Shown here one piece after another: positions 1,584 to 61,300 of a stretch of DNA of 64,000 nucleotides. Within the stretch, counting starts at the first letter, position 1. Every line of letters begins with the position of its first letter. The position numbers were made by a program, and so were the translations under genes. The notes under the pieces were generated by a model, which saw only the letters and a list, made by a program, of their open reading frames with translations, made no database searches and was not told the origin of the DNA. The DNA is from Candidatus Moraniibacteriota bacterium (GTDB taxonomy: Bacteria > Patescibacteriota > Minisyncoccia > Moranbacterales > UBA1568), in contig JBPOHW010000003.1 in the NCBI GenBank assembly GCA_052035095.1, positions 1,807 to 65,806 of the forward strand. Direction: 5' to 3'.

Positions 1584-1591
1584 AAAAACGT

Positions 1592-2254: not shown

Positions 2255-2256
2255 AT

Positions 2257-5199: not shown

Positions 5200-5241
5200 T
5201 CCACGCCTTGTACGTACAAAGGAACCCAGAAAGAAACTCAT

Positions 5242-6333: not shown

Positions 6334-6341
6334 CGTGCTCT

Positions 6342-7487: not shown

Positions 7488-7506
7488 AATCAGTTTCTTT
7501 TTCCAT

Positions 7507-8565: not shown

Positions 8566-8573
8566 ACGCCTTT

Positions 8574-10158: not shown

Positions 10159-10166
10159 AACTTGTT

Positions 10167-11144: not shown

Positions 11145-11186
11145 ATTCCTGAAAAAATTATAAATTCTTTTTTTGCAATCCACTTC

Positions 11187-12326: not shown

Positions 12327-12346
12327 ACGGGAAACTATTTAATTAG

Positions 12347-14484: not shown

Positions 14485-14530
14485 ACGGTTAAAACAAAGT
14501 GGAACAGAAAATGCAAATATGCGATTTATC

Positions 14531-15061
14531 TCATTTTTTCTTCCATGCTCCCGAGCCTTCTTTCAAGACAAGTGAGTAGATATCGAACGGTTCGTTGAAA
14601 AACTTTTCCAGTATATGCAAACACGCCTCAGCAACCGCCCCATCCCCACCTCGCAGGTTCGTGATAAAATCCGCCTTCTCTTTCGTTGCATAAAAAGCAT
14701 TGGCTGGAGCAATACTATAAGCAACGTGCTTAAAAACAAGTGGATCGAATATGCCGTCACCCATATAAATCGTTTCCGCCGGATCGAACCGATCGCGAAT
14801 CCACTCTATCCGCTCAAAAGTACTCACGAGGTCCAGTGGAAGCTTCATATCGTCGGCTATTCGTCGCTTCGTAATGGCAAAGCCGTTTTTATCACCGGTA
14901 ACCGCATGAATCATGAGTTTTCCCCGAAGAAGAGAAAGGGCGTCGTTATCTTCCGGACCGAACTTCTTCATGACTTTTCCATCGACGGTATAATAAAACG
15001 TACCGTCCGTGAAAACACCATCGACATCAAGAATGAAATTTTTTATTGTTTTCTTTTTCAT
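14531..15061 (-). CDS. HAD-IIIA phosphatase, KdsC-like (sugar-phosphate phosphatase)
   Basis: ILDVDGVFTDG...MGDGIFDPL...GGDGAVAEACLHIL matches the 3-deoxy-manno-octulosonate-8-phosphatase family. Confidence 0.7.
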   Translation of the reverse strand: MKKKTIKNFILDVDGVFTDGTFYYTVDGKVMKKFGPEDNDALSLLRGKLMIHAVTGDKNGFAITKRRIADDMKLPLDLVSTFERIEWIRDRFDPAETIYMGDGIFDPLVFKHVAYSIAPANAFYATKEKADFITNLRGGDGAVAEACLHILEKFFNEPFDIYSLVLKEGSGAWKKK

Positions 15062-15071
15062 ATCAACTGTT

Positions 15072-16646
15072 TTATTTTTCATTGAGCGCACGCCACAAGT
15101 TCAGCTTCCCGAAATAAAAGAGAAACAGATCGAACGGATGATGATGAAGTGGAGACATATTGAGCCAAATGATAGCCGTCAGAAGTTTCACCTTCCTTAC
15201 ATCATAGCCATTTTTCTCCAAAAATCCAAAGAGCACTTTTTGACATTGAACCAAATTTTCCTTGCGTAAAATATCACAAACAATCCTCTCCTTCCCAACA
15301 TCAATGACAAATAGATCATTGTTTACGATCTCATGATTCACTGTCAAATTGTGATTTAACTTCGAAAGATCGTAATACAAATCCCCCGATTTTAGAAGTC
15401 CGCCGAAATTTTGTCGCCAGTCCAAAAGCACATATCCAGATTTATTTTTCAAAAGATTATCAAGAATGAAATCGCCATGAAACCCGCTCTGCTTCGTATC
15501 ACATAGCCAATCAAAGTCAATCACTTCAAGCATTTTTTTAAAAGAAGGTATTTTTTCATCATTAATAACATTCTCCGCATCCTTCACTTTGCGCGAATTG
15601 AGAAACTTTTCAACTCGCTCCACTGTTTTTGTACGATAAAAATCAAAACAAATTTTCTTGAATTCCCGATCCGAAATTTCCCGATTCGGCTTCCAGAGAT
15701 TTTTCTGTGACCAATTCAGAAATCTCCCAAAGTCTATCGGGGTGGCGACTTTTGAATACAGTTTTCCGGTCGCATATTTATAACGATAAAAATTTTTGGT
15801 CGACCCTTGTATTTCCGGCACAAGACCGCGCAAAATTTTGGCCCTCGATACTCGTTGCGCCACCATCTTTTCATCATTGAAAAATTTAACCACAAAACTG
15901 TCAAAAATAAATATTGATTCATCTGATTTATCAAGAATTCGAAATGAGTCCTCAATTTCTTCCCGAGCCCTGTTTAAACTTTCGACATTACCAATATCGT
16001 ACCACTTTTCAAATTCAACCACTCCAAACTCGCTTCCGTCTCCTATCATTTTGCTGATTACCTCGACATCATTAAGTCCGCCATTATTCGGATCTTGTTC
16101 ATACAACTCCCTCAAGTTTTTCCAAAAGAGTTTATATTCTTGCACTCCTATCAAACCGATATGCAAAAAATCCGGATCCATCATTCCTTTGTCATACATT
16201 TGTTGCACTTTTCCGTCGACGACATCAAATGAAGCGTAGTGAGAAGATCCCTCACCCTGAAATCCTCCTATCCAATTTGACTTCGGCAAAGGAATTTTTC
16301 TCCCAGCAACAATCGTGTCACAAGCATGATAAATAAATGGGCATTGTAATTGGGAAGATGCTTGCAACATGGAATATCCAAGACTTGTTCCCGGGCCCTC
16401 ATATTTGTCCACTTCGACAAATTTGAAATTTCTTTCCGGATAAACCAGTTTCAAAAAATCACACACTTGATCACCAAAATAACCCACAGTTATAACAAAC
16501 TCCGTATTCTTCGGATACTGCTCAATGATATAAGAAATAGCCGGCTTCTTTCCGACTTTCACAAGAGACTTGTTCGTATACTTGGTTATTTCTCCCAATC
16601 GTGATCCTGTTCCGGACGTGGTAAGAAGGACCTTACAGGCAGCCAT
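15072..16646 (-). CDS. Bifunctional sugar-phosphate nucleotidyltransferase (N-terminal) / APH-ChoK-family kinase (C-terminal)
   Basis: N-terminus VLLTTSGTGSRLGEITKYTNKSLVKVG is a nucleotidyltransferase G-loop; C-terminus HGDFILDNLL...LLDWRQNFGG is the Brenner kinase motif; LicC/LicA-like order. Confidence 0.6.
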   Translation of the reverse strand: MAACKVLLTTSGTGSRLGEITKYTNKSLVKVGKKPAISYIIEQYPKNTEFVITVGYFGDQVCDFLKLVYPERNFKFVEVDKYEGPGTSLGYSMLQASSQLQCPFIYHACDTIVAGRKIPLPKSNWIGGFQGEGSSHYASFDVVDGKVQQMYDKGMMDPDFLHIGLIGVQEYKLFWKNLRELYEQDPNNGGLNDVEVISKMIGDGSEFGVVEFEKWYDIGNVESLNRAREEIEDSFRILDKSDESIFIFDSFVVKFFNDEKMVAQRVSRAKILRGLVPEIQGSTKNFYRYKYATGKLYSKVATPIDFGRFLNWSQKNLWKPNREISDREFKKICFDFYRTKTVERVEKFLNSRKVKDAENVINDEKIPSFKKMLEVIDFDWLCDTKQSGFHGDFILDNLLKNKSGYVLLDWRQNFGGLLKSGDLYYDLSKLNHNLTVNHEIVNNDLFVIDVGKERIVCDILRKENLVQCQKVLFGFLEKNGYDVRKVKLLTAIIWLNMSPLHHHPFDLFLFYFGKLNLWRALNEK

Positions 16647-16649
16647 AAT

Positions 16650-17366
16650 TTAGACAGCTCTCATTTTTTGAATAACCGAAACTGACCGATCAATGTTTCC
16701 TCGAAACTCTCTGATTTTTTCATCAAGCGGTTTTTCTTTTTTGTAGATAACCGACGTGCCGCATACCAACACAGTTGCCCCGGCAGCTATCATGAGCGGA
16801 CCGCTTTCCGGAGTCACCCCGCCGTCAATTTCGATTTCGATATCACTCTTTCCCAATGCATCCAGCTTCTTTCGGAGATCCATAATCTTCTGCACGGAAA
16901 AAGGAACTAGCTTGTGTCCGACAATTCCCGGATTGATAGCCATGAGCATTACAACGTCGATGTCATCCAATATGTAGTCAAGCACAGAGAGTGGAGTCGC
17001 CAGGTTAAGCGCCACCCCTGGTTTTACTCCCTCGTTTTTTATAAGAGAAACCGCGCGATGGAGATGATTGGTAGCCTCCGCATGTACAACAACATACGTT
17101 GCCCCAGCCTTTGCAAACTCCGTGACATACTTCTCTGGAGAACGCGTCATCATGTGCACATCAATAGGAAGACTTGTCACTGATCGAATATCCCGGAGCA
17201 GTTCAGGGTAAAGACCGTATCGAGGAACAAAGTCCCCATCCATGACATCAAAATGAATCGAATCAATACCACCCTTTTCAAGAAGACGAATTTCCTCCGC
17301 AAAAGTCATAGCATTCCCACAGATGAATGACGCTGATAACTTGTAGCTTCTTGTCATGGCTTCCAT
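16650..17366 (-). CDS. rpe: Ribulose-phosphate 3-epimerase family
   Basis: KLSASFICGN...IHFDVMDGDFVP...MAINPGIVG...IDGGV motifs. Confidence 0.8.
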   Translation of the reverse strand: MEAMTRSYKLSASFICGNAMTFAEEIRLLEKGGIDSIHFDVMDGDFVPRYGLYPELLRDIRSVTSLPIDVHMMTRSPEKYVTEFAKAGATYVVVHAEATNHLHRAVSLIKNEGVKPGVALNLATPLSVLDYILDDIDVVMLMAINPGIVGHKLVPFSVQKIMDLRKKLDALGKSDIEIEIDGGVTPESGPLMIAAGATVLVCGTSVIYKKEKPLDEKIREFRGNIDRSVSVIQKMRAV

Positions 17367-17372
17367 AGTTTT

Positions 17373-17900
17373 TTATTCAAGGTTGGAGTGTCGAGCCCAC
17401 ATTGTCTCATGAGTTTCCTCGAGAAGATCCATGAGCACCAATACAAGCGCGTCATAAAAAATAAAAAGACACTGTTCGTTCAGCGTCGTCATTGGTTGAA
17501 CGGAAGAAAATCCTTCCACTGGCTTGGTCTTTGAGGGAGCCTTGATTTCAACTATCGTATCAGCAAGTTTTCCCATCCTCGATTCCGGATTTCCGGTCAC
17601 AAGCGCGACTCTTGCCCCATTTTTCTTGGCAATTTCAACAAGATCATAAATGGTTTGGGTCTCACCGGATCCGGAACTCACCAAGAAGAGATCTCCAGAA
17701 CCGATAGACGGAACCACCGAATCGCCAAGCGTAAACGCATCCCGCCCAAGATGTTTCAATCGCATGCCAAATGATCGCGTCGCCATCCCTACTCTCCCCG
17801 CTCCGCACACCACAATCTTTTTCGCTCGTATAATGTCCGCAATGAGACCAATTACTTGTTCCTCCTGCAGTGACTCAAGCACTACTTTCATTTCACTCAT
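17373..17900 (-). CDS. hxlB: 6-phospho-3-hexuloisomerase (SIS domain)
   Basis: VVCGAGRVGMATRSFGMRL...LVSSGSGETQ...VQPMTTLNEQCLFIFYDALVLVLM...HSNLE closely parallels HxlB/PHI rather than GmhA. Confidence 0.65.
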   Translation of the reverse strand: MSEMKVVLESLQEEQVIGLIADIIRAKKIVVCGAGRVGMATRSFGMRLKHLGRDAFTLGDSVVPSIGSGDLFLVSSGSGETQTIYDLVEIAKKNGARVALVTGNPESRMGKLADTIVEIKAPSKTKPVEGFSSVQPMTTLNEQCLFIFYDALVLVLMDLLEETHETMWARHSNLE

Positions 17901-17982
17901 TATCACCTGTATTCTTCTCTTTATCATAGTAATTACGGCATTACAACAAGAAAAATTCATCCAGAAAACATCCTCTACTAGA

Positions 17983-19329
17983 TTATACTAACACTTTTCT
18001 TTCACTGTCAAAAATAGACATCCTTGCAAGAAGCCATCGTTCGACAAATATCGAGACAGCCGTATTGGCAATAAACATATACACAATAGCAAGAATACTC
18101 ACATTTCCGAAAAAAATAAGCAGTCCATATCCGGCTATGTGTGTAAAATTAATGATATTGGAGATGAGAACATATTTTTTGTAGAGTTTCTTTGAAAGCG
18201 CCATAATCGTCGACCAATAAACCGTGAGAATAATCTGAGCCGTCGCCAACAATCCAAAACTCGCAATGTATCTCATATCGTATCCGTATCGACTGCCAAA
18301 GAGTAACATCACTATATATATGATAGAACTCAATACAAAAAAGACGGGAACAGCTCCAAAAAGAAACAATCGGTCGAGCTTCCGAACGAAATCTTTGTCA
18401 GAAACCTTTGATATAAAGGGAAAATAGACATTCACAAAGATCTGTGTCGCTTGCGCGACAAGATTGGTCGAAGCGGTGAAATACGCCATATAAACTCCCA
18501 GTTCCTGTATGCTCAAATATTTTACAATAATAAATTTATCAAGAGAGCTAAACACTATCCCAAGAGCGGAGCTAAGAATAATAATCCAAGCGTATGAAAG
18601 TCCTTTTTTCAAAATATTGAAACGAAACTTTGAAAAATATCGTCGGAAAAACCACACCCCACAGAGAATAAAACCGATATACCCTCCGCAAAGAACAAAA
18701 AAATAAGACACGTAAGAAACTTTTTTCAAAAAAAAGAAGGCTACAAAAAACAAACAAATGATCAAAAAAACCTCCGCCATTCTCGAAAAAAATTGCTCTC
18801 GGAAAAAAGAGAGGCCTCGAAAAAATACGTCCGAAACCGATCGCGCTATCACGATAACGGAATACGTGGCAGCTACCAAAAAGAATATCAAATCAACATG
18901 GGAACGATTACTGATAAATGGAGCAATCATCAAAAAAAATACAATGACGGCAGTAGTTGAAAAACCAACGAAAACAGCTATCGTTGTCATACTTTCCGAT
19001 CGAGCTTCTCCTGTCTCATCTTTTGAGAGAAGTTGAAGCCCCGCAGTATCCATGCCAAAAAGCGCAAGGAGTATAAGTATTTGACTTACCGCAAGCACCA
19101 ATCCGTAAAGACCATACTGTTCTGGCCCCATAAAGCGCCCTCCAACCACATTTACAAAAAGCATAACGAGAGACGCTATAATACCTCCAAAAAACGACCA
19201 TGATAAATAGCCGAGAAACTTTCGCATCTCTCCACTCATCGGGTGTCCAAAAAACCGGAGATGGACAACCTCGATCATTCGAAAGAATTTCTTCTCCGCC
19301 ACCCCGAAAGACATAAGGCGATCAATCAA
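17983..19329 (-). CDS. Wzx-like polysaccharide/oligosaccharide flippase (MOP superfamily)
   Basis: 448 aa, about 12-14 TM helices, architecture of polysaccharide biosynthesis (Wzx) proteins; next to glycosyltransferases. Confidence 0.6.
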   Translation of the reverse strand: MIDRLMSFGVAEKKFFRMIEVVHLRFFGHPMSGEMRKFLGYLSWSFFGGIIASLVMLFVNVVGGRFMGPEQYGLYGLVLAVSQILILLALFGMDTAGLQLLSKDETGEARSESMTTIAVFVGFSTTAVIVFFLMIAPFISNRSHVDLIFFLVAATYSVIVIARSVSDVFFRGLSFFREQFFSRMAEVFLIICLFFVAFFFLKKVSYVSYFFVLCGGYIGFILCGVWFFRRYFSKFRFNILKKGLSYAWIIILSSALGIVFSSLDKFIIVKYLSIQELGVYMAYFTASTNLVAQATQIFVNVYFPFISKVSDKDFVRKLDRLFLFGAVPVFFVLSSIIYIVMLLFGSRYGYDMRYIASFGLLATAQIILTVYWSTIMALSKKLYKKYVLISNIINFTHIAGYGLLIFFGNVSILAIVYMFIANTAVSIFVERWLLARMSIFDSERKVLV

Positions 19330-41017: not shown

Positions 41018-41084
41018 ACTTCTAGCTAGCTTAATATTGTTTTTTGTTGTTTGTTGTCAGTTGGAAGTTGTAAGTTCAAAACGG

Positions 41085-41157
41085 TGGGTCGGGTGGGAAT
41101 CGAACCCACGACCGTTGGCTTAAAAGGCCACTGCTCTACCGACTGAGCTACCGACCC
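41085..41157 (-). tRNA. tRNA-Lys (anticodon TTT)
   Basis: Reverse complement GGGTCGGTAGCTCAGTCGGTAGAGCAGTGGCCTTTTAAGCCAACGGTCGTGGGTTCGATTCCCACCCGACCCA folds as a cloverleaf with anticodon loop CTTTTAA; CCA not encoded. Confidence 0.85.
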
Positions 41158-41208: not shown

Positions 41209-41255
41209 CTTAAAAGCCCGCCAGCTGGCGGGTCTACCGACTGAGCTACCGACCC
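41209..41255 (-). repeat. Partial tRNA-Lys copy (acceptor+D arm, 23 nt identical) joined through a 16-nt perfect palindrome CCCGCCAGCTGGCGGG to a copy of the anticodon loop
   Basis: tctaccgactgagctaccgaccc at 41233-41255 equals 41135-41157; palindrome at 41217-41232; cttaaaag repeated. Confidence 0.5.
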
Positions 41256-41346
41256 GGTTCTACGATGGACGAACAAAAACAGGACAAGAGACGCCCCATC
41301 AAAGGGAATTGTAGCACGAAACCGCGAGGCGTCAATGAAAACCCTC

Positions 41347-43382: not shown

Positions 43383-43455
43383 GTCTTCGTAGCTCAGTGG
43401 ATAGAGCGTCTGGTTGCGGTCCAGAAGGTCGCAGGTTCGATTCCTGCCGAGGACA
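43383..43455 (+). tRNA. tRNA-Arg (anticodon read as GCG)
   Basis: GTCTTCGTAGCTCAGTGGATAGAGCGTCTGGTTGCGGTCCAGAAGGTCGCAGGTTCGATTCCTGCCGAGGACA; 7-bp acceptor stem, anticodon loop TTGCGGT; no CCA. Confidence 0.8.
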
Positions 43456-43487
43456 CACATAAAAAAGTCCTTGACGTGTCTGATTGT

Positions 43488-43546
43488 GGTCCAGAAGGTC
43501 GCAGGTTCCCTGCCTGCCGGCAGGCAGGGATTCCTGCCGAGGACAC
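43488..43546 (+). repeat. Partial copy of tRNA-Arg 3' half carrying a 20-nt perfect palindrome (CCTGCCTGCCGGCAGGCAGG) inserted in the T-loop between positions 56 and 57
   Basis: ggtccagaaggtcgcaggttc + palindrome + gattcctgccgaggacac; preceded by GTCCTTG that could pair with the 3' CGAGGAC. Confidence 0.5.
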
Positions 43547-51005: not shown

Positions 51006-52736
51006 CTATTTCCTCCGCACTTTTTCCGTGACCCAGAATTCGCCGAAGTATTTGCCGAAGAGGAGCCGTGTCTGCGAATCGAGCGCGGGGAACGCCGAGA
51101 GAAACGCGACGAAGGGCGACAAGACCCATTGGAAGAGCATCACGAAATATTTCGAGGAATGATAGCGCGCGGGCTTCGGCGGGAGCGAGAAGAGCGAGAG
51201 TGGCACGGACACAACCATACCGAGAAGTGCCAAGGTCATGAGTCGCTGAGTAATGAGCGGGAGATTGTGCGCCAAGACGCTCTCGCGAAACGCGATACCG
51301 CCCAAGATAAGCGGGAGCCATCCCAAAAGCGCCAAAAGAAACGACGTCGTCGCCCACGAATAGTGCCCCTCAAGCATCTCAAACGAGATGCGAAGCTTCT
51401 TGAAGAATCCGATTTTTGCGTCCGGCCAGAGCGCGCGCATCGTGACGGGAAAATTCTCGATGCCATACGCCCATCGACGGTTCTGCTTGTATTGATTCAC
51501 GATCGTCTTCCAGTAAGAATCCGCCAAAACCGCGTCGAGCGACACGGGGAGATGAATCGGTTGCACTTCGTAATCGCCGTGAAAATACGCGATACACTTC
51601 CAATAGATCACCGAGTCCTCGCTGATCATATTCACCGGCCAAAATCCTACCCGAACGAGCGTGTCAAACGGCTCGCTATGCGACGAAAACGTCACCATTT
51701 GCCGCCGCGTACTCTGAAACAAGTGCCAAAACGACGAGCCTGTCACCACGAGTCGCACAAAGGCGTTCGTATCCCAGATCGTATTGTGATAGACCGGCAT
51801 CGGCTGATACGCTCGTTGGAGGCGTTTCGGATTGGTCACATAGGCATAGGTGAGCGCCGCGAAATATTCCGGATGCGCCACGCTATCGCAGTCGAAATTG
51901 GAAAAAATGACGCGCGTATATTCAATGCTTCGTTCGTCGAGATATTTTTGAAGTTCTTTGGCGGCAAATTTGGCGTTCGACGCCTTGCATTTCATCTCGC
52001 CCTCCGCGACAATATGCGTCGTCACGAGAAAGTCCTTGAAGACACCATCAAATTTCTTTTTCAAATACTCCACCTTTGCCGTGCGGTGCGCCGCGTCTTC
52101 GCGCTCCTCGGTCGCGAGGAGTACAATCATCTGTTCCTTGGGGAAATTCGCTTCGGCAAGCGACCGGATCGCGGGTTCGATCACCTCCGCCCCCTCTCCG
52201 GCGGTCGGCAGGAGAACGACATGAATGATTTTGCGCCAGTCCCAAATCTCCTCCGCGATCGGCACGAGTCGTTTTGCTTCGCGAAGCGTTTCTTTCGTCC
52301 GGCACAACTCCTTCCTCATTTTGAGCCGATTGCCGAGCGCAAAAAACGGTAAAGCTTTTCGCATCTGACGAAGATGTTCCATCCTCTCTTCGAGTTCTCG
52401 CGCAAACACTTCCGGCTGAAGACTGTTCTGGCACCGTTCCCACCAGTCTATTGTTTTGCTCTTCACTAATCGGAAATGCGCCCGCGTCGAATAGTAGGAA
52501 ATGAACACGATGCGATAGAGCCAGTAGAGATCAAAAAGAATGATGGCGACCGCCGCCCAGAGCGGCAGAAAAAACGAAATGACAAACATCCCGATGAGCG
52601 TCCCCCACGAGAGAAGCCCCGGCACCATCTCAAGCGCGCGCTGAACCCGCCGCGCCCGCGGCTCGGTCGTTTTCGGATCGGGGAACACAAAAATTTCCCC
52701 CAACTTCTCCTCCTTACGGTCAACATTCATAAACAA
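51006..52736 (-). CDS. Processive family-2 glycosyltransferase (CesA/BcsA/NodC-like synthase) with flanking TM helices
   Basis: DxD (FSNFDCDSV) and Q(Q/R)xRW (YKQNRRWAYG) motifs, 2 N-terminal and about 4 C-terminal TM helices. Confidence 0.65.
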   Translation of the reverse strand: MFMNVDRKEEKLGEIFVFPDPKTTEPRARRVQRALEMVPGLLSWGTLIGMFVISFFLPLWAAVAIILFDLYWLYRIVFISYYSTRAHFRLVKSKTIDWWERCQNSLQPEVFARELEERMEHLRQMRKALPFFALGNRLKMRKELCRTKETLREAKRLVPIAEEIWDWRKIIHVVLLPTAGEGAEVIEPAIRSLAEANFPKEQMIVLLATEEREDAAHRTAKVEYLKKKFDGVFKDFLVTTHIVAEGEMKCKASNAKFAAKELQKYLDERSIEYTRVIFSNFDCDSVAHPEYFAALTYAYVTNPKRLQRAYQPMPVYHNTIWDTNAFVRLVVTGSSFWHLFQSTRRQMVTFSSHSEPFDTLVRVGFWPVNMISEDSVIYWKCIAYFHGDYEVQPIHLPVSLDAVLADSYWKTIVNQYKQNRRWAYGIENFPVTMRALWPDAKIGFFKKLRISFEMLEGHYSWATTSFLLALLGWLPLILGGIAFRESVLAHNLPLITQRLMTLALLGMVVSVPLSLFSLPPKPARYHSSKYFVMLFQWVLSPFVAFLSAFPALDSQTRLLFGKYFGEFWVTEKVRRK

Positions 52737-52763
52737 AGAATACCCTATTTGAAGGAAAAAGGC

Positions 52764-52796
52764 AAGAAAAAAGCCCGGAAAATTCCTTTGCCGGGC
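52764..52796 (-). terminator. Rho-independent terminator downstream of small ORF 52824-53192
   Basis: Minus-strand GCCCGG-CAAAGGAATTTT-CCGGGC followed by TTTTTTCTT. Confidence 0.45.
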
Positions 52797-52823
52797 ATGG
52801 GTATTATATTTATAAGATCCGTA

Positions 52824-53192
52824 TTACTTCACCGCCTTCATCTCACTCCTTTGAATAAGGGTTTTAATCTCCTCATCGTTTGTGCCAATGTCAGCAAGGG
52901 AGAATTTCCATTGTTGACACTCACGACGAATGATCTCGACGCAGGAATCATACTCCCAGCTGCCTTCACGGAGAAGATCAAGGTACCGCCTGACCTTACT
53001 TTTGGCACCCTTTATACAGCATCCTTTAATCTCATCTTCATTTGTGTCAATGTCAGCAAGGGAGAATTTCCATTGTTGACACTCACGACGAATGATCTCG
53101 ACGCAGGAATCATACTCCCGGCTGCCTTCACGGAGAAGGCTGAGATATTGCCGAGCTGTCTGCATAGCTTCTTGAGTCGCCATCGTTACCAC
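52824..53192 (-). CDS. Small hypothetical protein (122 aa) built from two nearly identical 54-aa tandem repeats
   Basis: YLSLLREGSREYDSCVEIIRRECQQWKFSLADIDTNEDEIKG / YLDLLREGSWEYDSCVEIIRRECQQWKFSLADIGTNDEEIKT; underlying DNA repeats about 160 nt, near-identical. Confidence 0.35.
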   Translation of the reverse strand: MVTMATQEAMQTARQYLSLLREGSREYDSCVEIIRRECQQWKFSLADIDTNEDEIKGCCIKGAKSKVRRYLDLLREGSWEYDSCVEIIRRECQQWKFSLADIGTNDEEIKTLIQRSEMKAVK

Positions 53193-53292
53193 CCTCCTGG
53201 ACTAGGATTGAACAAGAACCACATTCCCGCTATACTGGAACTATTCCAGCAAGCATCTCTCCTGTATACACTATTTCTAAACTTTTGTCAAT

Positions 53293-54549
53293 ATGCTTTG
53301 GCGATTTCCCAAAAACTTCCTCTGGGGGGCGGCGACCTCGTCGCATCAGGTGGAGGGCGGCACGACCAATGACTGGAGCGAGTGGGAAAAGGTAAACGCC
53401 GACCGCCTCGCCCGCGAAGCCGCCGCAAAGTTCGGTCACCTCCCCGGCTGGACGGAGAAGTTCGGCACGGAAGCCGCCAGTCCCGAGAATTATATTTCCG
53501 GCATTGCCGTCGATCACTATCATCGTTACGAAGCGGATTTCGATATCGCGAGGAGTTTGGACCACACCGCGCACCGCTTCTCCATCGAGTGGTCGCGCGT
53601 CGAACCCGAGGAAGGAAGATTCGACGAAGCGGAAATAGGGCATTACCGAAATGTCGTTCGCGCCCTTCGCGCACGAAGCATCGAGCCTTTCGTCACACTC
53701 TGGCACTGGACGCTTCCCTTGTGGCTCGCGCGACAAGGAGGCATGCTCGCGCCGCGATTCCCGCACTACTTCGCGCGGTATGCGGAAAAAATGGCGCACG
53801 CACTCGGGAATGACGTGACCTTTTGGATCACGCTCAATGAACCCGATGTCGTCACTTCGCATGCCTATCTCAAGGCCGCCTGGCCGCCGCAAGAAAAGAG
53901 CGCCCTGAAATTTCTTCGCGCCAACTTCGCTCTCATACACGCGCATAAAAAAGCATACGACGCCATAAAAAAGAAACTTCCCAAATCTCAAATAGGCGTT
54001 GCTAAACACCAGGTTTCATTCGAACTCAGAAGAAACGCGATCGCAAATCGAATACTCAAGAAATTCGCGCACTATTTTTGGAACCGATGGTTTCTCAACC
54101 GTATAAAAAAGTATCAAGACTTCATCGGACTCAATCACTACAATCGAAACGTCATCAACAATGGCTTCAGCAAAAACCCAAACAAGCGCCTCACTGATTT
54201 CGGCTGGGAATTTTATCCCGAATCCATCTATCAGGCGCTCGTCGAATTAAAGCCCTACAAGAAGCCCATTTACATTACCGAAAACGGTCTCGCCGACCAA
54301 AGCGATACACTCCGAAAAGAATTTTTGACACGCGCGCTCACGTCCGTCCACCGCGCGATCCACGACGGCGCCGATGTCCGCGGCTACCTCTACTGGTCGT
54401 TCCTCGACAACTTCGAATGGGACAAAGGCTTCTGGCCCCGTTTCGGTCTCGTCGACGTCGACCGCAAAACACTGGAGCGAACCATCCGACCGAGCGCTCG
54501 TTTCTACGCCGACATCTGCCAGGCGAATGCAATCGAAACACCATACTGA
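53293..54549 (+). CDS. Glycoside hydrolase family 1 beta-glucosidase
   Basis: FPKNFLWGAATSSHQVEGG N-terminus, acid/base TLNEP, nucleophile ITENG. Confidence 0.85.
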   Translation: MLWRFPKNFLWGAATSSHQVEGGTTNDWSEWEKVNADRLAREAAAKFGHLPGWTEKFGTEAASPENYISGIAVDHYHRYEADFDIARSLDHTAHRFSIEWSRVEPEEGRFDEAEIGHYRNVVRALRARSIEPFVTLWHWTLPLWLARQGGMLAPRFPHYFARYAEKMAHALGNDVTFWITLNEPDVVTSHAYLKAAWPPQEKSALKFLRANFALIHAHKKAYDAIKKKLPKSQIGVAKHQVSFELRRNAIANRILKKFAHYFWNRWFLNRIKKYQDFIGLNHYNRNVINNGFSKNPNKRLTDFGWEFYPESIYQALVELKPYKKPIYITENGLADQSDTLRKEFLTRALTSVHRAIHDGADVRGYLYWSFLDNFEWDKGFWPRFGLVDVDRKTLERTIRPSARFYADICQANAIETPY

Positions 54550-54615
54550 CCTTGCGCAACAGCTTTTTTATGCTACAATCTGAAAGAGCCGAAAGGCTTT
54601 TGTTTTTTGTCTCTC

Positions 54616-54690
54616 GGCCTCATCGTCTATCGGTTAGGACAGCGGCTTTTCAAGCCGTTAAGAGGGGTTCGACTCCCCTTGAGGCTACCA
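54616..54690 (+). tRNA. tRNA-Glu (anticodon TTC), CCA encoded
   Basis: GGCCTCATCGTCTATCGGTTAGGACAGCGGCTTTTCAAGCCGTTAAGAGGGGTTCGACTCCCCTTGAGGCTACCA; preceded by a hairpin+T-run that terminates the GH1 gene. Confidence 0.85.
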
Positions 54691-54710
54691 AGAAAACTCA
54701 AAAATTCATC

Positions 54711-54777
54711 GAGGGGTTCACCATGTCATTCGACATGGCGCCCCGTCGGATGACGGGGCGACTCCCCCTGAGGCTAC
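54711..54777 (+). repeat. Partial copy of the tRNA-Glu T-arm+acceptor 3' strand with a 40-nt insertion (two perfect hairpins) at T-loop position 56/57
   Basis: gaggggttc + [ccatgtcattcgacatgg + gccccgtcggatgacggggc] + gactccccctgaggctac. Confidence 0.5.
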
Positions 54778-54783
54778 ACGGAA

Positions 54784-54846
54784 ATGATCCTCGCGCTCGA
54801 AACATCGTGTGATGAAGTGGCTTTCACGGTCAGAAAAAACATTTGA
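54784..54846 (+). pseudogene. Duplicated 5' fragment of tsaD (first 11 codons, 32 nt identical to 57153-57184) running into a stop after 20 codons
   Basis: ATGATCCTCGCGCTCGAAACATCGTGTGATGAA = MILALETSCDE, identical to the tsaD start 2.3 kb downstream. Confidence 0.5.
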
Positions 54847-54853
54847 CAAAAAC

Positions 54854-54881
54854 TTGAAAAACGCTTCGGGGAAGGTATAAT
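54854..54881 (+). promoter_or_regulatory. Sigma-70-like promoter TTGAAA-16 nt-TATAAT upstream of the RDD-domain gene
   Basis: acTTGAAAaacgcttcggggaaggTATAATat. Confidence 0.45.
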
Positions 54882-54934
54882 ATAGGCTATAAACGTGTTC
54901 TAAAAAAACTCTTTTTTGTTTTTTCATTTTACGT

Positions 54935-55930
54935 ATGAATCAGCAAGCAATTCAGTACCTCGCTGAAAACAAAGAGGCACACTCAAAGGAAACTCTCATC
55001 TCTCAACTTCAACAATCCGGTTATTCGGAAGTTGATATTGCGGAAAGCATTGCCACAGTCTATCCCAACGAATCCACAGGGGTTCCGACTCCTCCAATGG
55101 CGCCGATCAAATACGCCGGATTTTGGATTCGTTGGGTAGCGATTTTTGTTGATGGTCTTATCCTCTTCATTCCAAATGGTCTTTTGAATTTCCTCCTGGG
55201 AGAAAATTCACCGAAAGTCTTTCAGCTTTTTCTCCCCTTGTTCCTCGCTTCCGCATATCACATAATACTGATTCATAGGTATCAAATGACCATTGGAAAG
55301 ATGGCCGTCGGTATACGAGTTGTTTCAAACACCACTGAACGACTTCCGCTTAAAAGAGTCATTCTCCGCGAAACCATTGGGAAATTTTTGTCAGGATTTA
55401 CATTCGGCATCGGCTTTCTCATGGTTGGATTTACCAAGAGAAAACAAGGGCTTCACGATATGATCGCCGGGTCGACCGTTGTTTATAGAAATCCGGAAAA
55501 GAAAATGTCCGTCTTGGTTATCGTACTTATTGTCATATCGGCAATGCTTCCCGCAATGGCCCTCGTCGGAATGTTTGCCTCTATTGTTCTTGCTTCACTC
55601 AGTAGCGCTCGAGGCAAAGCGTCTGACGAGGCAATGAAGGCCACCCTCTCGGCAGAAATCATCTCCGCCATCCTGTATGCCGATGAAAAGGGAACGCTTA
55701 CGGGTTTTACTCCGGATCCCAAAACCGCCTTCAAAGAATGTAACGGTAAGCCGATTGTCTCTGTCGCTCCCAATGGAAATACTCTTGCTCTATTTGGAAA
55801 ATTGTGCCAAAAGGATGACCGATACATTTGCGTTGACACTCGTTTTGACCCCCTCACAGAAGACACTCACTCATTCAAAGAGGTTGAAAAATCGTATGTC
55901 TCCAGCGGGAAATCCGTCTGTCCCGATTAG
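54935..55930 (+). CDS. RDD-family membrane protein with a C-terminal type-IV-pilin-like segment
   Basis: RDD core (FWIRWVAIFVDGLIL...GKMAVGIRVV...KQGLHDMIAGSTVV); C-terminal hydrophobic helix followed by LSSARGKASDEAMKATLSAEII, a pilin-like pattern. Confidence 0.5.
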   Translation: MNQQAIQYLAENKEAHSKETLISQLQQSGYSEVDIAESIATVYPNESTGVPTPPMAPIKYAGFWIRWVAIFVDGLILFIPNGLLNFLLGENSPKVFQLFLPLFLASAYHIILIHRYQMTIGKMAVGIRVVSNTTERLPLKRVILRETIGKFLSGFTFGIGFLMVGFTKRKQGLHDMIAGSTVVYRNPEKKMSVLVIVLIVISAMLPAMALVGMFASIVLASLSSARGKASDEAMKATLSAEIISAILYADEKGTLTGFTPDPKTAFKECNGKPIVSVAPNGNTLALFGKLCQKDDRYICVDTRFDPLTEDTHSFKEVEKSYVSSGKSVCPD

Positions 55931-55957
55931 AAATCCGTTCTCTGAAAGTTCTGACAT

Positions 55958-57061
55958 ATGAGAAAGATTCTCATCACCCTCCTTTCGGTACTCTTAACTC
56001 CCCTTGCCATTTTCGCCATAATTTTCCTCTTTTTCCTGCTACGGGAATTCGGGAAAGGAGGGATATTTTTTTTGGGAGTAATTTTCATTGTCATTTTTTT
56101 GTCTCAAAGGGAAAAAATTCGACACCTCTTTATCTCTTTTGAGAATTTTTTCGCTTCATATCCGTTTATTAACAATAACAAGAACGTTATGGCAAATTCA
56201 TTGTCCGACGTCGGCAATTATGCTGAGAAAGCTCGCAACGGTTGGAAAGTCGCAAAGGGTATCATAGCGATTCTCTTTGCTCTTTGGATCACCTCTTGGT
56301 TCGTCGTCATTGTCGGAGCCGGGGAAACCGGTGTTTATTCTCTCTTCGGAAAAGTACGCGACACCGAGCTTCGATCGGGTTTTCATTTCGTCAATCCGCT
56401 CGCGCATGTGGAAAAAATGAGTATTCGAACCGAGCAGTACACGATGAGCATCGCTCCGAGTGAAGGTCAAATAAAAGGCGATGACTCTATCAGTTCCCTT
56501 ACAAGGGAGGGGCTGGATGTCAACGTGGATTTCACGGCACTCTATCGCTTGGAAGAACCAAAAGCGTCGGACGTGTATCGTGAAGTGGGATTGAACTATG
56601 TCGAGAAAATCATTCGCCCGGAAATTCGCGGCGTGATTCGAGATATTGTTTCTCAATATGAGGCAAAAGAGCTCTACTCACAGAAAAGGCAGGAAGCTTC
56701 GGACCGAATAGCAACACTCCTCAAGGAACGAATTGGCTCGCGCGGCATCATCATTGAGCAGGCACTCATTCGCAATGTCCAACTTCCGCCAAATCTCACC
56801 AAAGCGATTCAGGAGAAACTCGCCGCCGAACAGGAAGCTCAACGATATGACTTCGTGCTCGATCGCGAAAAGAAGGAGGCTGATCGAAAAAGAATCGAAT
56901 CGGAAGGACAGAGGGACGCGCAAAAAATCATCAATGAAAGCTTGAGCGCCGAATATTTGAATTATCTCTACATAAAAGAACTGAAAGATCGCCAAGGCAC
57001 CATCTATGTCCCCGTCAATCCTTCAAGTGGCATGCCGCTCTTCAAGGGAATCGGGGAATAG
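55958..57061 (+). CDS. SPFH/band-7 (prohibitin/HflC-like) membrane protein
   Basis: SPFH core from MANSLSDVGNYAEK...VVIVGAGETGVYSLFGKV...; possible alternative start at 56189; C-terminal coiled coil. Confidence 0.7.
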   Translation: MRKILITLLSVLLTPLAIFAIIFLFFLLREFGKGGIFFLGVIFIVIFLSQREKIRHLFISFENFFASYPFINNNKNVMANSLSDVGNYAEKARNGWKVAKGIIAILFALWITSWFVVIVGAGETGVYSLFGKVRDTELRSGFHFVNPLAHVEKMSIRTEQYTMSIAPSEGQIKGDDSISSLTREGLDVNVDFTALYRLEEPKASDVYREVGLNYVEKIIRPEIRGVIRDIVSQYEAKELYSQKRQEASDRIATLLKERIGSRGIIIEQALIRNVQLPPNLTKAIQEKLAAEQEAQRYDFVLDREKKEADRKRIESEGQRDAQKIINESLSAEYLNYLYIKELKDRQGTIYVPVNPSSGMPLFKGIGE

Positions 57062-57151
57062 AAGGGAAAGGTTCTCTAACACAGTCATAAGTTGCAAGGA
57101 CATGCCCCAACAAAAATTCCTCATTCTCCATTCCTCATTCCCCATTCTCTT

Positions 57152-58360
57152 GTGATCCTCGCGCTCGAAACATCGTGTGATGAAACCGCGGCCGCCATCG
57201 TAGGAAAAGACGATGGCGGTGTTTGTGTGCTCTCGAGTGTCGTCTCATCGCAAATCGCGCTCCACGCGCCCTTTGGCGGAGTTGTGCCAAACCTCGCCGC
57301 GCGCGAACATGTGAGAAACATCGTCCCCGTCATCGAGTCGGCACTCCGCGAAGCGAGCGCCTCAAAAGACGATATCGAGGCGATCGCCGTCACGGCGGGA
57401 CCCGGACTCATGCCCGCGCTCCAGATCGGCGTCACCGCTGCAAAAACGCTTTCCTATCTCTGGAAGAAACCCCTCCTCGGCATCCACCACATCGAAGGTC
57501 ACATCTACGCAAATTTTATTAGTAGCGAGCAGTTAGTATCCAGGAGTCAGCAACGAAAAGAACATAAATCGCCTTCAAACTACTCACTACCCACTACTCG
57601 CTCCTCATCCCTCTTCCCTCTCCTCGCGCTCGTCGTTTCGGGCGGGCATACCGAACTCGTCTTGATGCGCAATCACTTCGACTATGAAATCTTGGGCGAA
57701 ACCGAAGACGATGCCGTCGGCGAAGCCTTTGATAAGGTCGCCAAAATGCTCGGCCTCCCCTATCCCGGAGGACCGGAGATCGCCAAAAGAGCGGAGCTCT
57801 TTGGGAATGTCGAATGGGGAATGTTGAATAAAGAACCAACTCCGAATTCAGAAACAAAATACATTAAAACTCATTCACCATTCTCCATTCACCATTCGAC
57901 ATTCTCATTCCCTCGTCCTCTCCTCGATTCACACGACTACCGTTTTTCTTTCTCCGGACTCAAGACGTCCGTCCTCTACTTTTTGAAAAAGAATGAAGAA
58001 AAAAAGCGCGACGAACATTTCATCAATGCCGTCTGTTATGAATTCCAAGAGGCGGCGCTCGACGTGCTCATTGAGAAAACGCGCCGCGCCACCCTCGAAT
58101 ACCGACCGAGAACCGTCATCATCGCGGGCGGCGTCTCGGCGAACGTTGAGCTTCGCACGCGAATGAGCGACATGATTACGCGCGATTTTCCCGACACATC
58201 TTTCCTCATGCCCCCGTTCAGATATTCTCTCGACAACGCGGGAATGATCGGCGCCGCTGCGCTCTTTCGGTGGGAAAAAATGACCGCCGAGGACAAACAA
58301 AAAGCGTCCACCGATTGGCAGACGCTTTCCGCGGATCCGAATATGAACCTTGGGGATTGA
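57152..58360 (+). CDS. tsaD: tRNA N6-adenosine threonylcarbamoyltransferase TsaD/Kae1 with two low-complexity in-frame insertions
   Basis: ILALETSCDETAAAIV, GVVPNLAAREHV, LVVSGGHTELV, GEAFDKVAKMLGLPYPGGPEI, IIAGGVSANVELR; GTG start supported by the upstream duplicate; ORF extends to 57092. Confidence 0.85.
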   Translation: MILALETSCDETAAAIVGKDDGGVCVLSSVVSSQIALHAPFGGVVPNLAAREHVRNIVPVIESALREASASKDDIEAIAVTAGPGLMPALQIGVTAAKTLSYLWKKPLLGIHHIEGHIYANFISSEQLVSRSQQRKEHKSPSNYSLPTTRSSSLFPLLALVVSGGHTELVLMRNHFDYEILGETEDDAVGEAFDKVAKMLGLPYPGGPEIAKRAELFGNVEWGMLNKEPTPNSETKYIKTHSPFSIHHSTFSFPRPLLDSHDYRFSFSGLKTSVLYFLKKNEEKKRDEHFINAVCYEFQEAALDVLIEKTRRATLEYRPRTVIIAGGVSANVELRTRMSDMITRDFPDTSFLMPPFRYSLDNAGMIGAAALFRWEKMTAEDKQKASTDWQTLSADPNMNLGD

Positions 58361-58393
58361 ACATTTCACTCTCCAGTGCTACCATTTCCCCAT

Positions 58394-61300
58394 ATGAGCC
58401 AAGAAATCCCCACAACATACGAGCCCAAAGATCACGAAGACTCGATATACAAAAAGTGGGAAGAAAGCGGATTTTTTGGTCCGGACGTCTGCATCCAAAA
58501 AGGCGTAACAAACCCGGATGCCAAGCCGTTTTCCATTGTTCTCCCGCCACCAAACGTCACCGGCACGCTTCACTTGGGACATGCCGCCATGCTTGCAATC
58601 GAAGATATCATGGTGCGCTACCACCGCATGAAGGGCGATAAAACCCTTTGGATTCCCGGCACCGACCACGCGGCGATTGCAACGCAAGAAAAAGTCGAAC
58701 GAATCCTGTGGAACGAGGAAAAGAAAACTCGACACGACCTCGGACGAGAAGTGTTTCTCGAACGCGTAAAGAAATTCGCGCAAGATTCACACGACACCAT
58801 CGTCAATCAGTGTAAAAAAATGGGAGCTTCCCTCGACTGGGATCGCGAGGCATACACACTCGACGATGCCAGGAACCGCGCGGTCAACGAGGCCTTCCGC
58901 CGTATGTTCGAAGACGGCATCATCTATCGAGGATCCCGCATCGTCAACTGGGATCCGAAATTTCAGACCACGGTTTCCGACGACGAAGTGGAACGTCGAG
59001 AAGAAGTCGCCCCATTCTACTATTTGCAATACGGTCCCTTCGTCATCGGTACCGCTCGTCCCGAAACGAAATTCGGCGACAAATATGTCGTCGTACATCC
59101 AAATGATGAGCGATACCGCGAGTACGAACACGGACAGAAAATAGAAAATATCGAGTGGATCAACGGAACTATCACGGCGACCGTCATCAAAGATGAAGCC
59201 ATTGATATGAATTTCGGAACCGGTGCCATGACTATTACTCCATGGCACGACGCGACCGACTTCGATATCGCCGAGCGGCACCACCTCGATAAAGAGCAGA
59301 TCATCAACTACGACGGAAGGCTCCTCTCGATCGCCGGAGAATTTTCCGGCATGGATATAGCTGAAGCACGCCCAAAAATAATCGAGAAACTTCGCAAAAA
59401 AAATCTCGTTGTGAAAACCGAGGAAAATTATCTTCACAATATCGCCGTAAATAGCCGAGGTGGCGGCATCATCGAACCGCAGATCAAAGAACAGTGGTTT
59501 GTCAATGTCAATAAAGAGTTCGATCGAAATGGAAAAAAGACGACCCTGAAATCACTTATGCAAGAAGCGGTTCGCTCCGGTGAAGTGAAAATTATTCCCG
59601 AACGATTCGAGAAAACTTACTTTCATTGGATCGATAATCTTCGCGACTGGTGTATTTCCCGGCAAATTTGGTTCGGGCATCGAATACCGGTGTGGTATCG
59701 AGACAAAGAGGTTTTTTGCGGTCCGAAAACACCCGAAGGAAAAGGCTGGCAACAAGACCCCGACACGCTCGATACATGGTTCTCTTCCGGACTCTGGACA
59801 TTTTCGACGCTTGGATGGCCGTTAGATAAAAAGTTTGGATTTCATGAGTCACTTGTTGATATAGTAAAAGACGGGACGAAAACCAAGACATATCGTCTAA
59901 GAGATAAACAAGCGCTCACGGGAGAACAGTATCTTGTTGAAAACTCAAAAACAAAGAAAAGCTTCGGATTTATAGCAATAGAAAAAGTGAGCAAAACCAT
60001 ACTTAGAAACATTGCGCACAATCAAGTGGGACATGAACCCTACCAAGACAGAAAACACTTTCTGTCCACAATGAAAGCATATTATCCAAATATGGACGTT
60101 TCGGAGGGATCCCCCGTATGGATATATGAGTTTAGTTACCATAAAGAATCACATCTCCAAACCTACCACCCGATATCCGTTCTCGAAACAGGTTACGACA
60201 TTCTCTTCTTCTGGGTCGCCCGCATGATACTTATGTCGGAATATTTGCTCGGCGAAGTTCCCTTTAAAACCACCTATCTTCATGGTCTCATCCGCGACGA
60301 GAAAGGGCGTAAGATGAGCAAGTCGCTCGGCAATGTAATCGACCCGCTCGATATGACTGCGAAATATGGCACCGACGCCGTTCGACTCTCGCTCGTCATC
60401 GGGAGCACCCCTGGAAACGATATTCGTCTCGGCGAAGAAAAAATCGCCACCTTCCGCAACTTCACCAACAAACTCTGGAATATCGGGCGGTATGTTGTCC
60501 AGCAATCGGCAAACAGCAGTCAGCAATCAGACAAGGAGCAAGGAACAATAAGCCAGGAACAAGAGGCGGAAAAACCAGGGAGATTGAAAATTGCAAATTG
60601 CAAATTGAAAATTGTTTCCTCGGCCGATCGCTGGATTCTTTCCCGGCTCGACGAAACGGTACGTAAAGTCACGGAACTCCTCGAAGGCTACCAGTTCTCG
60701 CTCGCCGGAGAGACATTGCGCGATTTCACTTGGAACGAATTTGCCGACTGGTATGTCGAAGCGCACAAAGTAGAAGGAAACAACGAGGTGCTTCGATATG
60801 TTTTCGAAACGCTTTTGAAGCTCTGGCACCCCTTTATGCCGTTCGTCACAGAAACGCTCTGGTCACAGCTTGGAAAAGATCAGCTCCTCCTCGTAACGCC
60901 ATGGCCAAAACAGGACACAAACACTCTTCCTGAGGGCGCAAAAGAAAATTTTTCACACATCATCGACATCATTACAAAAATCCGCGCTATTCGATCAATC
61001 TACCATATCGACCCGAAGCAAGAGCTCGATATTTCTTTCGCGACTCCGGAAGAAAACCTTCTTGCAAAGAATGAAACCATACTCAAACGCCTTGCGCGCG
61101 TCGGAACCGTTTCGTTTCTTCGCGACAAAGAAACCGTGTCCCATTCCGCGCGTTCCGTCATTGGAAACACACGCATCTGTATTCACCTCGAAGCCATACT
61201 TGATCTTGACAAAGAACAGAAACGCCTGGAAATGGAACTCAAAAAACTCGAAACATTCATCGAAAACACGTCCGCGCGACTCGGCAACGAAGCCTTCACT

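Follow-up and report, generated by a model that had tools for sequence, protein, structure and literature searches.

Displaced gene ends and an RDD-SPFH cassette at the tRNA-Glu/tsaD junction of a Moraniibacteriota genome

Results

Layout of the tRNA-Glu/tsaD locus

The region between the tRNA-Glu gene and tsaD in a 64,000-nucleotide stretch of a Candidatus Moraniibacteriota genome (contig JBPOHW010000003.1, positions 1,807 to 65,806; hereafter the window) contains a second, interrupted tRNA 3' end, a short stub of tsaD and a two-gene segment encoding an RDD-family membrane protein and an SPFH protein (Table 1). Coordinates are positions in the 64-kb window, tRNAs were called with ARAGORN and Rfam 15, protein domains were assigned with Pfam, and L-numbers (L003, L083, L135 etc.) are labels of the relatives' loci or contigs used for comparison. 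The surrounding gene order of glycosyltransferase (-), GH1 (+), tRNA-Glu (+), tsaD and valS is kept in relatives. By its TsaD relatives the window belongs to Candidatus Moraniibacteriota, within the Patescibacteria, and the best species representatives match the TsaD of the window at 72% identity. Among the approximately 50 open reading frames (ORFs) of the window that were scanned with Pfam, housekeeping and glycan-synthesis genes were found. Integrase, transposase and nuclease domains were all absent from these ORFs, in agreement with a first-pass annotation of the stretch, which had remarked that no integrase is present.

The 3' segment of tRNA-Glu occurs twice in direct orientation (54662-54690 versus 54711-54719 plus 54760-54778). 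The right part of the second occurrence, GACTCCCCCTGAGGCTACA, provides the remainder of the T-arm and the acceptor 3' strand with one mismatch and with one C of the CCA absent. The 40 nt that interrupt it at T-loop position 56/57 form two perfect hairpins, as had been noticed from the sequence: CCATGTC-ATTC-GACATGG (54721-54738) and (C)GCCCCGTC-GGAT-GACGGGGC(G) (54739-54760). Folded together with the T-stem these reach -37.5 kcal/mol (z = -3.2 against shuffles), and the 54711-54719 strand pairs with 54763-54768. A role as terminators is ruled out by the lack of a T-run. No second copy of the hairpins (≤3 mismatches) was found in the window or in approximately 130 loci, and an Rfam scan of 52000-59000 at E ≤ 1 returned the tRNA alone, with no family match at 54691-54850.

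After the second tRNA end and CGGAA comes a second tsaD start. The 32-nt repeat at 54785-54816 is exactly identical to 57153-57184, so that the duplication of the first 11 tsaD codons claimed in the first-pass annotation holds to the base; the repeat has just these two copies in the window, where none is expected (100 shuffles). Both copies read M/V-ILALETSCDE, the N-terminus of TsaD, and copy 1 is preceded by an A (ATG at 54784), copy 2 by a G (GTG at 57152). We refer to the 2,368-bp unit of promoter, RDD gene, SPFH gene, spacer and repeat-borne tsaD start as the cassette; its promoter, RDD/pilin-like gene and SPFH gene had been described from the letters and are borne out by consensus matches and Pfam hits. 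The GC content at third codon positions (GC3) is 0.46-0.51 in the cassette versus 0.62-0.69 in the neighbouring genes. Between the promoter and tsaD, terminator-like sites are predicted only inside coding sequence, and tsaD is therefore probably co-transcribed with the RDD and SPFH genes from the cassette promoter. No inverted repeats pairing the cassette ends were found in the window. Viral contigs gave neither a match to the 32-mer nor a relative of the SPFH gene, and hence no link to phage. The heptamer repeats (NNCATTC)n that precede the working tsaD start at 57120-57147 also occur at 57802-57920, as an inverted pair inside an in-frame insertion in TsaD, and comparable heptamer repeats lie inside the tsaD of L003.

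Table 1. Features of the tRNA-Glu/tsaD locus, in window coordinates.
Feature	Position	Strand	Basis
Functional tRNA-Glu(UUC)	54616-54690	+	ARAGORN; Rfam tRNA 58.8 bits
Last 20 nt of tRNA-Glu, GACTCCCCTTGAGGCTACCA, CCA encoded; the newer, inserted 3' end	54671-54690	+	Comparison with L135, L136, L083
20-nt filler AGAAAACTCAAAAATTCATC between tRNA-Glu and the fossil copy	54691-54710	+	Sequence
Fossil T-arm, left part, GAGGGGTTC: T-stem 5' strand and first three T-loop bases, through C56	54711-54719	+	
Double-hairpin insert, 40 nt, at T-loop position 56/57	54720-54759	+	Perfect stems of 7 and 9 bp
Fossil tRNA-Glu 3' end GACTCCCCCTGAGGCTACA (54760-54778) and old 5-nt spacer CGGAA	54760-54783	+	L135 junction match
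tsaD 5' stub: old ATG (54784) and 10 codons; repeat copy 1 is 54785-54816	54784-54816	+	
Sigma-70-like promoter of the insert, TTGAAA-16-TATAAT	54854-54881	+	11/12 consensus matches
RDD-family membrane protein, 331 aa, pilin-like C-terminal part	54935-55930	+	Pfam PF06271, E = 5.6e-24
SPFH/prohibitin-family (Band_7) protein, 367 aa	55958-57061	+	Pfam PF01145, E = 2e-32
Pre-tsaD spacer, brought with the insert; (NNCATTC)n heptamers at 57120-57147	57093-57151	+	Aligns to L136
Functional tsaD, GTG start; repeat copy 2 is 57153-57184	57152-58360	+	Pfam PF00814, E = 7e-82

Comparison with related genomes identifies the older gene ends

The first-pass annotation had proposed that the RDD-SPFH segment was inserted at, or duplicated with, the 5' end of tsaD, with the repeats as its junctions, and that the position of tsaD relative to tRNA-Glu in other genomes would bear on this. 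In the closest relative found, L135, the gap between tRNA-Glu and the ATG of tsaD is 5 nt (CGAAA); it is 6 nt in L003, and the two genes are also adjacent in L023 and L035. None of the 80 related tsaD loci examined has an RDD or SPFH homolog nearby (0/80). Both results bear out an insertion, with the 32-nt repeats as its junctions. L135 reads ...GAGGGGTTCGACTCCCCTTGAGGCTACA-CGAAA-ATGATCCTCGCGCTCGAAACATCGTGTGATGAA-ACCGCGG..., with the junction GACTCCCCTTGAGGCTACA-CGAAA-ATG, and window positions 54759-54816 match this junction at 96.6% identity (blastn). Given this match, the second tRNA end, CGGAA and the ATG stub are a fossil of the old tRNA-tsaD junction.

The flanking bases sort the two tRNA ends in the same way. 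The tRNA body of L135 is identical to that of the window and its gene end reads ...GAGGCTACA-CGAAA-ATG with CCA not encoded. The fossil flank ACA-CGGAA-ATG resembles the L135 sequence ACA-CGAAA-ATG, whereas the working tRNA is instead flanked by CCA-AGAAAAC. The flank CCA-AGAAAA recurs in L136 and L083, and so do the first ~10 nt of the filler; fillers of ~20 nt also separate fossil and tRNA in L048 and L077. The extra T-arm segment is thus present as first described, while its status as a copy does not stand: by its L135-like flank it is the original 3' end of tRNA-Glu, and the 3' end of the working tRNA is the newcomer. On the same comparative grounds, the working tRNA end (last 20 nt, CCA and AGAAAAC) and the working tsaD start (heptamer spacer and GTG) are newer, inserted sequence, and the fossil pieces are most likely non-functional relics. 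The encoded CCA had raised the idea of a retro-copy origin for the new tRNA-Glu end, which we rejected because the tRNA-Lys duplicate described below extends 8 nt into the 5' leader and because some tRNA genes of the phylum encode CCA and others do not.

Three states of the locus can be distinguished among the relatives. State 1, adjacent tRNA-Glu and tsaD, is seen in L135 and L003. State 2 is seen in L136 (TsaD 78%), where tRNA-CCA-AGAAAAC is followed by ~28 unique nt and then by 62 nt homologous to window 57093-57154 that end in GTG-tsaD; the outer ends of the window arrangement are therefore present alone, and fossil, stub and cargo are absent. State 3, the window layout, is found in L083, which contains filler, fossil, stub, promoter, RDD and SPFH at 81% DNA identity over 1.95 kb. 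Its stub matches that of the window at 32 of 33 positions, within flanks that are 27-32% diverged (P ~2e-4). The L083 fossil has decayed: both hairpins are gone, the region folds differently, and the fossil acceptor strand mismatches L083's own tRNA. L084 is also in state 3, with a stub of ~48 nt in L003/L004-type tsaD sequence, its own type, followed by promoter and RDD; its k=31 de Bruijn contig begins inside the stub/repeat. The promoter block is conserved in L083, and the RDD homologs in this context are 77% (L083) and 73% (L084) identical. The contig of L137 (P0305) starts inside tsaD and does not cover the junction.

The arrangement is neither recent nor unique to the window genome, being common to two related species (L083 and L084), and the order state 1, cassette insertion, T-loop insertion and internal deletion would account for all three states. 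Presence or absence of the cassette does not track sequence distance among the relatives, which implies losses, re-gains or recombination between lineages. In relatives the interval from tRNA-Glu to tsaD can be as short as 6 nt or as long as 3.5 kb, and its contents are unrelated, often including a sigma factor. Comparison with shuffles revealed no convincing tsaD 5' stub in 22 other tRNA-Glu-to-tsaD gaps; the gap of L022 scored 13.0 against a shuffle maximum of 11.5 and was judged to be chance.

L135 itself changes character at the junction. Aligned to window 54408-60459, it is 74% identical over the GH1 3' end and tRNA region and 96-100% identical from the first base of the repeat (57153; 96% DNA identity) through valS; L135 is a chimeric k=31 contig or else a genome that has recombined at the junction. 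Within valS the window carries an in-frame insert of ~106 codons at 59822-60158 (+), of low GC and with an ASCH domain (Pfam E = 6e-6). It replaces 19 nt of L135 between flanks that are 96-100% identical, and is absent from the ValS of all other relatives.

The cargo genes have different associations elsewhere. Patescibacterial SPFH homologs share 55-82% identity and lie at loci that differ among the relatives examined, mostly without RDD; both genes are present in L092, in the order SPFH then RDD. Direct repeats around SPFH at its other loci were not found except for tRNA-tail copies in L129, where, at 6568-6900 just upstream of the SPFH gene, two units of ~110 nt lie in tandem after tRNA-Lys(UUU), each ending with a copy of the tRNA 3' end and its own terminator. 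Some RDD homologs carry the Joint Genome Institute (JGI) name 'RDD.../pseudopilin PulG', and a metagenome scan with RDD gave no close relatives, the best match being 46% identical.

Palindrome-bearing tRNA fossils and associated elements

The tRNA-Glu fossil is one of several in the window. Three of its four tRNAs (Arg, Lys and Glu) adjoin a partial copy of themselves that holds a GC-rich perfect palindrome; the 64 kb contain 15 perfect hairpins with a stem of ≥8 bp, and the three with GC ≥ 0.75 all lie in these partial copies. Across the fetched loci, 37 of 176 tRNAs have partial copies of this kind. Such palindrome-bearing fragments are widespread in the phylum, and the tRNA-Glu locus is one case of that pattern. 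tRNA-Arg(GCG) (43383-43456, +; whole arrangement 43383-43546) is followed 22 nt on by a same-sense copy running from the anticodon loop to the 3' end; at T-loop 56/57 this copy is interrupted by the perfect palindrome CCTGCCTGCCGGCAGGCAGG (43509-43528). Eight other genomes have this palindrome too: in the 5' tRNA-Glu fossil of L003, in an element of L057 of the type called X below, and in L009, L060, L061, L067, L077 and L078. Upstream of tRNA-Lys(UUU) (41083-41157, -) lies a partial 5' copy comprising an 8-nt leader and positions 1-23 (41233-41263), after which come the palindrome CCCGCCAGCTGGCGGG (41217-41232) and then anticodon-loop bases, CTTTTAAG; the original tRNA-Lys promoter (TACAAT) precedes this fossil. 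Variants of TCCGCCAGCTGGCGGA lie beside tRNA fragments in L035, L076 and L077.

In many relatives, fossils of tRNA-Glu are joined to a nuclease gene. Upstream of the intact tRNA lie, in order, tRNA positions 1-35, a double hairpin of ~30 nt, positions 36-45 and an 81-aa GIY-YIG gene (PF01541, E = 3.6e-16) that ends 8-39 nt before tRNA-Glu. The same fossil-nuclease architecture is present at tRNA-Glu in at least 8 related loci: the gene is found in L013 (at 4237-4482, within an arrangement spanning 4140-4560), L023, L025, L049, L076 and L081 and in decayed form in L005, L019, L052 and L074, and just fossil and filler are left in L048, L077 and L003. No GIY-YIG nuclease was detected in the window by tblastn or by Pfam on the ORFs scanned. 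The double hairpins of the relatives are paired in 84 of 84 cells and 5 of 12 pairs have changed on both sides, a level reached by 0 of 500 shuffles. A double hairpin of the same family occupies T-loop 56/57 of a 3' fossil in L074, just upstream of tsaD. The GIY-YIG unit resembles an element of the homing-endonuclease type, one that duplicates a stretch of the tRNA.

A second type of element, here called X, is a structured sequence of ~140-165 nt downstream of tRNA-Glu, also of tRNA-Arg in L076, with a related type after tRNA-Lys in L066. X loci were located in L013 (4603-4738), L056 (5191-5343), L068 (3931-4267, two in tandem) and L076 (3783-3926 and 10360-10510), and further in L057, L061, L037, L048, L073, L015, L072, L060 and L027. 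The 5' arm of X is complementary, and its 3' arm identical, to the T-arm/acceptor 3' part of the host tRNA, each copy has its own terminator, and in the type-A alignment 14 of 28 predicted pairs covary. Rfam has no family for the structured elements in the 10 related loci and L068 that were scanned. We considered X as a possible homolog of the T-arm segment in the window and rejected this, since the X covariance model (R1), with 16 hits in relatives, had none in the window. A coding, tmRNA-like (transfer-messenger RNA-like) tag in X was likewise rejected: the stretch is a hairpin with no consistent frame. At L065 ~10150-10330, a tRNA-like gene contains an anticodon-loop insertion of ~100 nt that itself contains tRNA-like sequence.

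Discussion

We favour, with a probability of roughly 0.6, the view that the region is the scar of two insertions into a locus that once read tRNA-Glu, 5 nt, ATG-tsaD, each of which replaced a gene end at a recombination hotspot. This history is well supported by the ancestral adjacency in relatives, by the old and new ends of both genes and by the sharing of the layout among related species. In the first event, a 2,368-bp segment would have recombined as a circle at the first ~33 nt of tsaD through a single crossover (Campbell-type), bringing promoter, RDD, SPFH, spacer and a GTG with the first 11 tsaD codons. The product would be an upstream stub with the old ATG and a full-length tsaD starting with GTG. 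The two 32-nt repeats would then be attL/attR-like junctions, and recombination between them would restore state 1 exactly. A crossover within ~33-48 nt of tsaD 5' sequence could be site-specific or driven by short homology, the enzyme may have acted in trans or been lost, and the unit may still be mobile; selection for, or conversion of, matching repeats would keep the stub intact. In the second event, an 89-nt piece would have entered the tRNA T-loop at 56/57 and supplied a new 3' end with CCA, the displaced old 3' end surviving as the fossil with its double hairpin. The 89-nt insert looks like a decayed relic of the kind of nuclease-type tRNA element seen in relatives. More speculatively, nuclease breaks at tRNA-Glu make the junction a recombination hotspot, which would fit the jump from 74% to 96% identity against L135, and the palindromes may stabilise insertions by interrupting repeat homology.

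Several points weigh against this history. Of the ~50 ORFs scanned over the 64 kb, none encodes a recombinase or nuclease, and neither a circular nor an excised form was seen. At 89 nt the T-loop insert is too small to be an element of its own, and it is assumed to be a remnant. The stub ends differ, at ~48 nt in L084 and 33 nt in the window and L083, implying independent integrations or later change. SPFH looks more like a conserved gene of the lineage than foreign cargo, and the 100% identity of the repeats could be due to gene conversion instead of selection acting on att sites. The break in identity to L135 (96-100% to the right, 74% to the left) weakens L135 as a clean 'empty site'. Finally, gene ends inserted with mobile ORFs usually differ from the native ones, whereas the tsaD repeats here are identical.

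The alternative that survives best, which we nevertheless consider rather unlikely, is one-off illegitimate repair, in which breaks at the tRNA-Glu locus, for instance by GIY-YIG nucleases, were mended by template switching or short-homology recombination. RDD-SPFH would have been copied from elsewhere in the genome, the short gene ends duplicated by accident, and the repeats kept identical by gene conversion with the constrained start of the real tsaD. The highly variable tRNA-Glu-to-tsaD interval (6 nt to 3.5 kb) with its unrelated contents, the leap in identity to L135 at exactly the junction, the GIY-YIG genes that often accompany tRNA-Glu fossils in relatives and the 20-43-nt fillers that separate duplicated tRNA pieces are all consistent with such repair, as are the recurrence of SPFH as a conserved lineage gene at many loci and a set of scanned ORFs without recombinase. 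The same comparisons contain what argues for insertion at a defined target: stub and cassette recur in three species, the L084 stub differs in length and matches its own tsaD type, tsaD stubs are seen solely with the RDD-SPFH cassette, and the stub is far better conserved than its flanks.

Equally tentative is a broader interpretation, that the window relics are decayed members of an undescribed tRNA-targeting selfish family in Moraniibacteriota and that the cassette was moved by the same break-and-repair machinery. Such elements would enter the loops of tRNAs, restore the tRNA by duplicating part of it and mark the fossils with covarying double hairpins, sometimes carrying a GIY-YIG nuclease and, on the 3' side, a ~150-nt X RNA whose ends match the host tRNA. 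If true, the tRNA-Glu/tsaD junction would be a place in a reduced genome where genes are actively shuffled. A limited literature search found no paper on palindrome-bearing tRNA fragments or GIY-YIG/tRNA-Glu elements in the candidate phyla radiation (CPR).

That the T-arm segment, double hairpin and stub together form a functional RNA, whether a tRNA-like processing signal, a decoy or a leader/attenuator of an RDD-SPFH-tsaD operon, seems improbable. In its favour, the perfect hairpins fold stably with the T-stem into a three-way structure (z = -3.2), the tRNA and the operon have no terminator between them, the stub is kept between species, the fossil double hairpins of relatives covary (100% of cells paired, 5 of 12 pairs double-changed) and tail-matched, structured X RNAs lie downstream of relatives' tRNAs. 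However, the L083 counterpart has lost both hairpins and folds otherwise, its fossil acceptor strand mismatches its own tRNA, Rfam returned no match, the X-type model had no hit in the window, and the operon promoter sits downstream of the stub. Least probable is an assembly artefact, raised in the first-pass annotation as an assembly collapse and here taken as a chromosome that reads tRNA-fossil-ATG-tsaD, with the 2,368-bp unit, a separate circle or strain variant, mis-threaded at the 32-nt repeat: a Logan k=31 contig (L001) equals window 54787-57182 exactly, with 30 nt of repeat at each end and 0 mismatches, and a k=31 graph is unable to separate a linear insertion from a circle, but L083 crosses the left junction unbroken, L136 shows the same spacer and GTG joined to tsaD, ordinary reads span 32 nt, the source contig is ~79 kb, and even a circular unit would bear a tsaD 5' fragment and imply the same biology.

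Under the two-insertion history that we prefer, the locus has likenesses to several known systems. Islands and prophages that integrate in tRNA genes leave attL/attR partial copies (Reiter 1989 and Williams 2002, as cited in PMC9897764). As there, the complete tRNA has behind it a partial 3' copy in the same sense, the insert supplies the new end, and breaks fall in the T-loop or anticodon loop. Unlike there, only a 20-nt filler (54691-54710) separates the copies, with no island and no integrase in the ORFs scanned; the fossil bears a palindromic insert, and RDD-SPFH lies beyond fossil and stub, at the 5' end of a protein gene.

Mobile ORFs (mORFs) of fungal mitochondria replace gene ends, as in Allomyces atp6 and Glomus atp6, atp9, cox2 and nad3 (PMC3630166). 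The combination of an inserted gene end, mobile DNA and a displaced native fossil that matches a close relative (96.6% to L135) is the same here, and relatives show this layout around a GIY-YIG ORF beside tRNA-Glu. The differences are that the window has no nuclease ORF, that the 5' rather than the 3' end of tsaD is replaced and that the setting is a bacterial chromosome; between inserted and native ends, the tRNA ends differ by one base and CCA, and the tsaD repeats are identical over 32 nt. Cis-mobilizable elements (CIMEs) are decayed integrative elements that have kept attL/attR and lost the integrase (PMC5704250). Like them, the locus has a small cargo between direct repeats that contain part of the target gene, and no recombination genes in the scanned ORFs. 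It differs in its target, the 5' end of tsaD, and in having no known parent integrative and conjugative or integrative and mobilizable element (ICE/IME) or cognate integrase.

Campbell-type insertion-duplication, in which a circle carrying an internal or 5' gene fragment integrates by a single crossover and can be reversed by recombination between the repeats, matches the product exactly: a stub with native upstream sequence, the insert, and the full gene fused to the insert's upstream region. Unlike in the typical case, the 32-48 nt of homology are near the lower limit for RecA-type recombination. In mitochondria, double-hairpin elements are short pairs of hairpins inserted in other sequences. 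Small palindromic mobile repeats include repetitive extragenic palindromes with their associated transposases (REP/RAYT), Rickettsia palindromic elements and MITEs, which are miniature transposable elements with inverted repeats (review PMC10969869). Short GC-rich palindromes inside other sequence, and the recurrence of CCTGCCTGCCGGCAGGCAGG across genomes, resemble REP and MITE sequences; unlike these, the palindromes here nearly all lie in the loops of tRNA fossils and have no known transposase, and the two tRNA-Glu hairpins are single-copy in the data searched. The cassette is unlike a transposon or insertion sequence, with no paired inverted repeats, no transposase in the ORFs scanned and a 32-nt duplication far beyond usual target duplications. 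It is also unlike an integron cassette, having its own strong promoter and no IntI-type domain in the ORFs scanned; attC sites were not specifically searched for.

The locus thus works like tRNA att duplications, CIMEs and mORFs and is a member of none, because the enzymes that define those systems (integrase, nuclease) are absent from the window ORFs scanned. It is a scar of known general type and not a new system. What is new is the target, the first 11 tsaD codons, joined to a GTG and a promoter that came with the insert, together with the enzyme-less two-gene cargo, the palindromes in the fossils and the CPR setting. It offers a clear, datable case of a very small, host-dependent genome rearranging around essential genes without losing them, in which tsaD has exchanged its tRNA-linked leader for a new promoter that also serves membrane-protein genes. 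Should the cassette still be able to excise, it would amount to a minimal mobile unit with no enzyme of its own. Annotators should read the 'pseudo-tRNA' and the 11-codon ORF as scars. As a lead, the family of tRNA-linked elements around the locus is more unusual than the single locus, and palindrome-bearing tRNA fragments, GIY-YIG genes and tail-matched RNAs point to a possible hotspot mechanism in candidate-phyla bacteria.

Other features of the window

Two further features of the window were observed away from the tRNA-Glu/tsaD junction. Between the glycosyltransferase and GH1 genes, a 122-aa ORF contains an internal duplication, a 114-nt direct repeat of 96% identity with 162-nt spacing (52863-53138, -). 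At 675-19329, GC3 is markedly low, 0.33-0.45 versus ~0.6 for core genes, across a block of genes for glycosyltransferases, methyltransferases and polysaccharide synthesis, which suggests a horizontally exchanged surface-glycan cluster.

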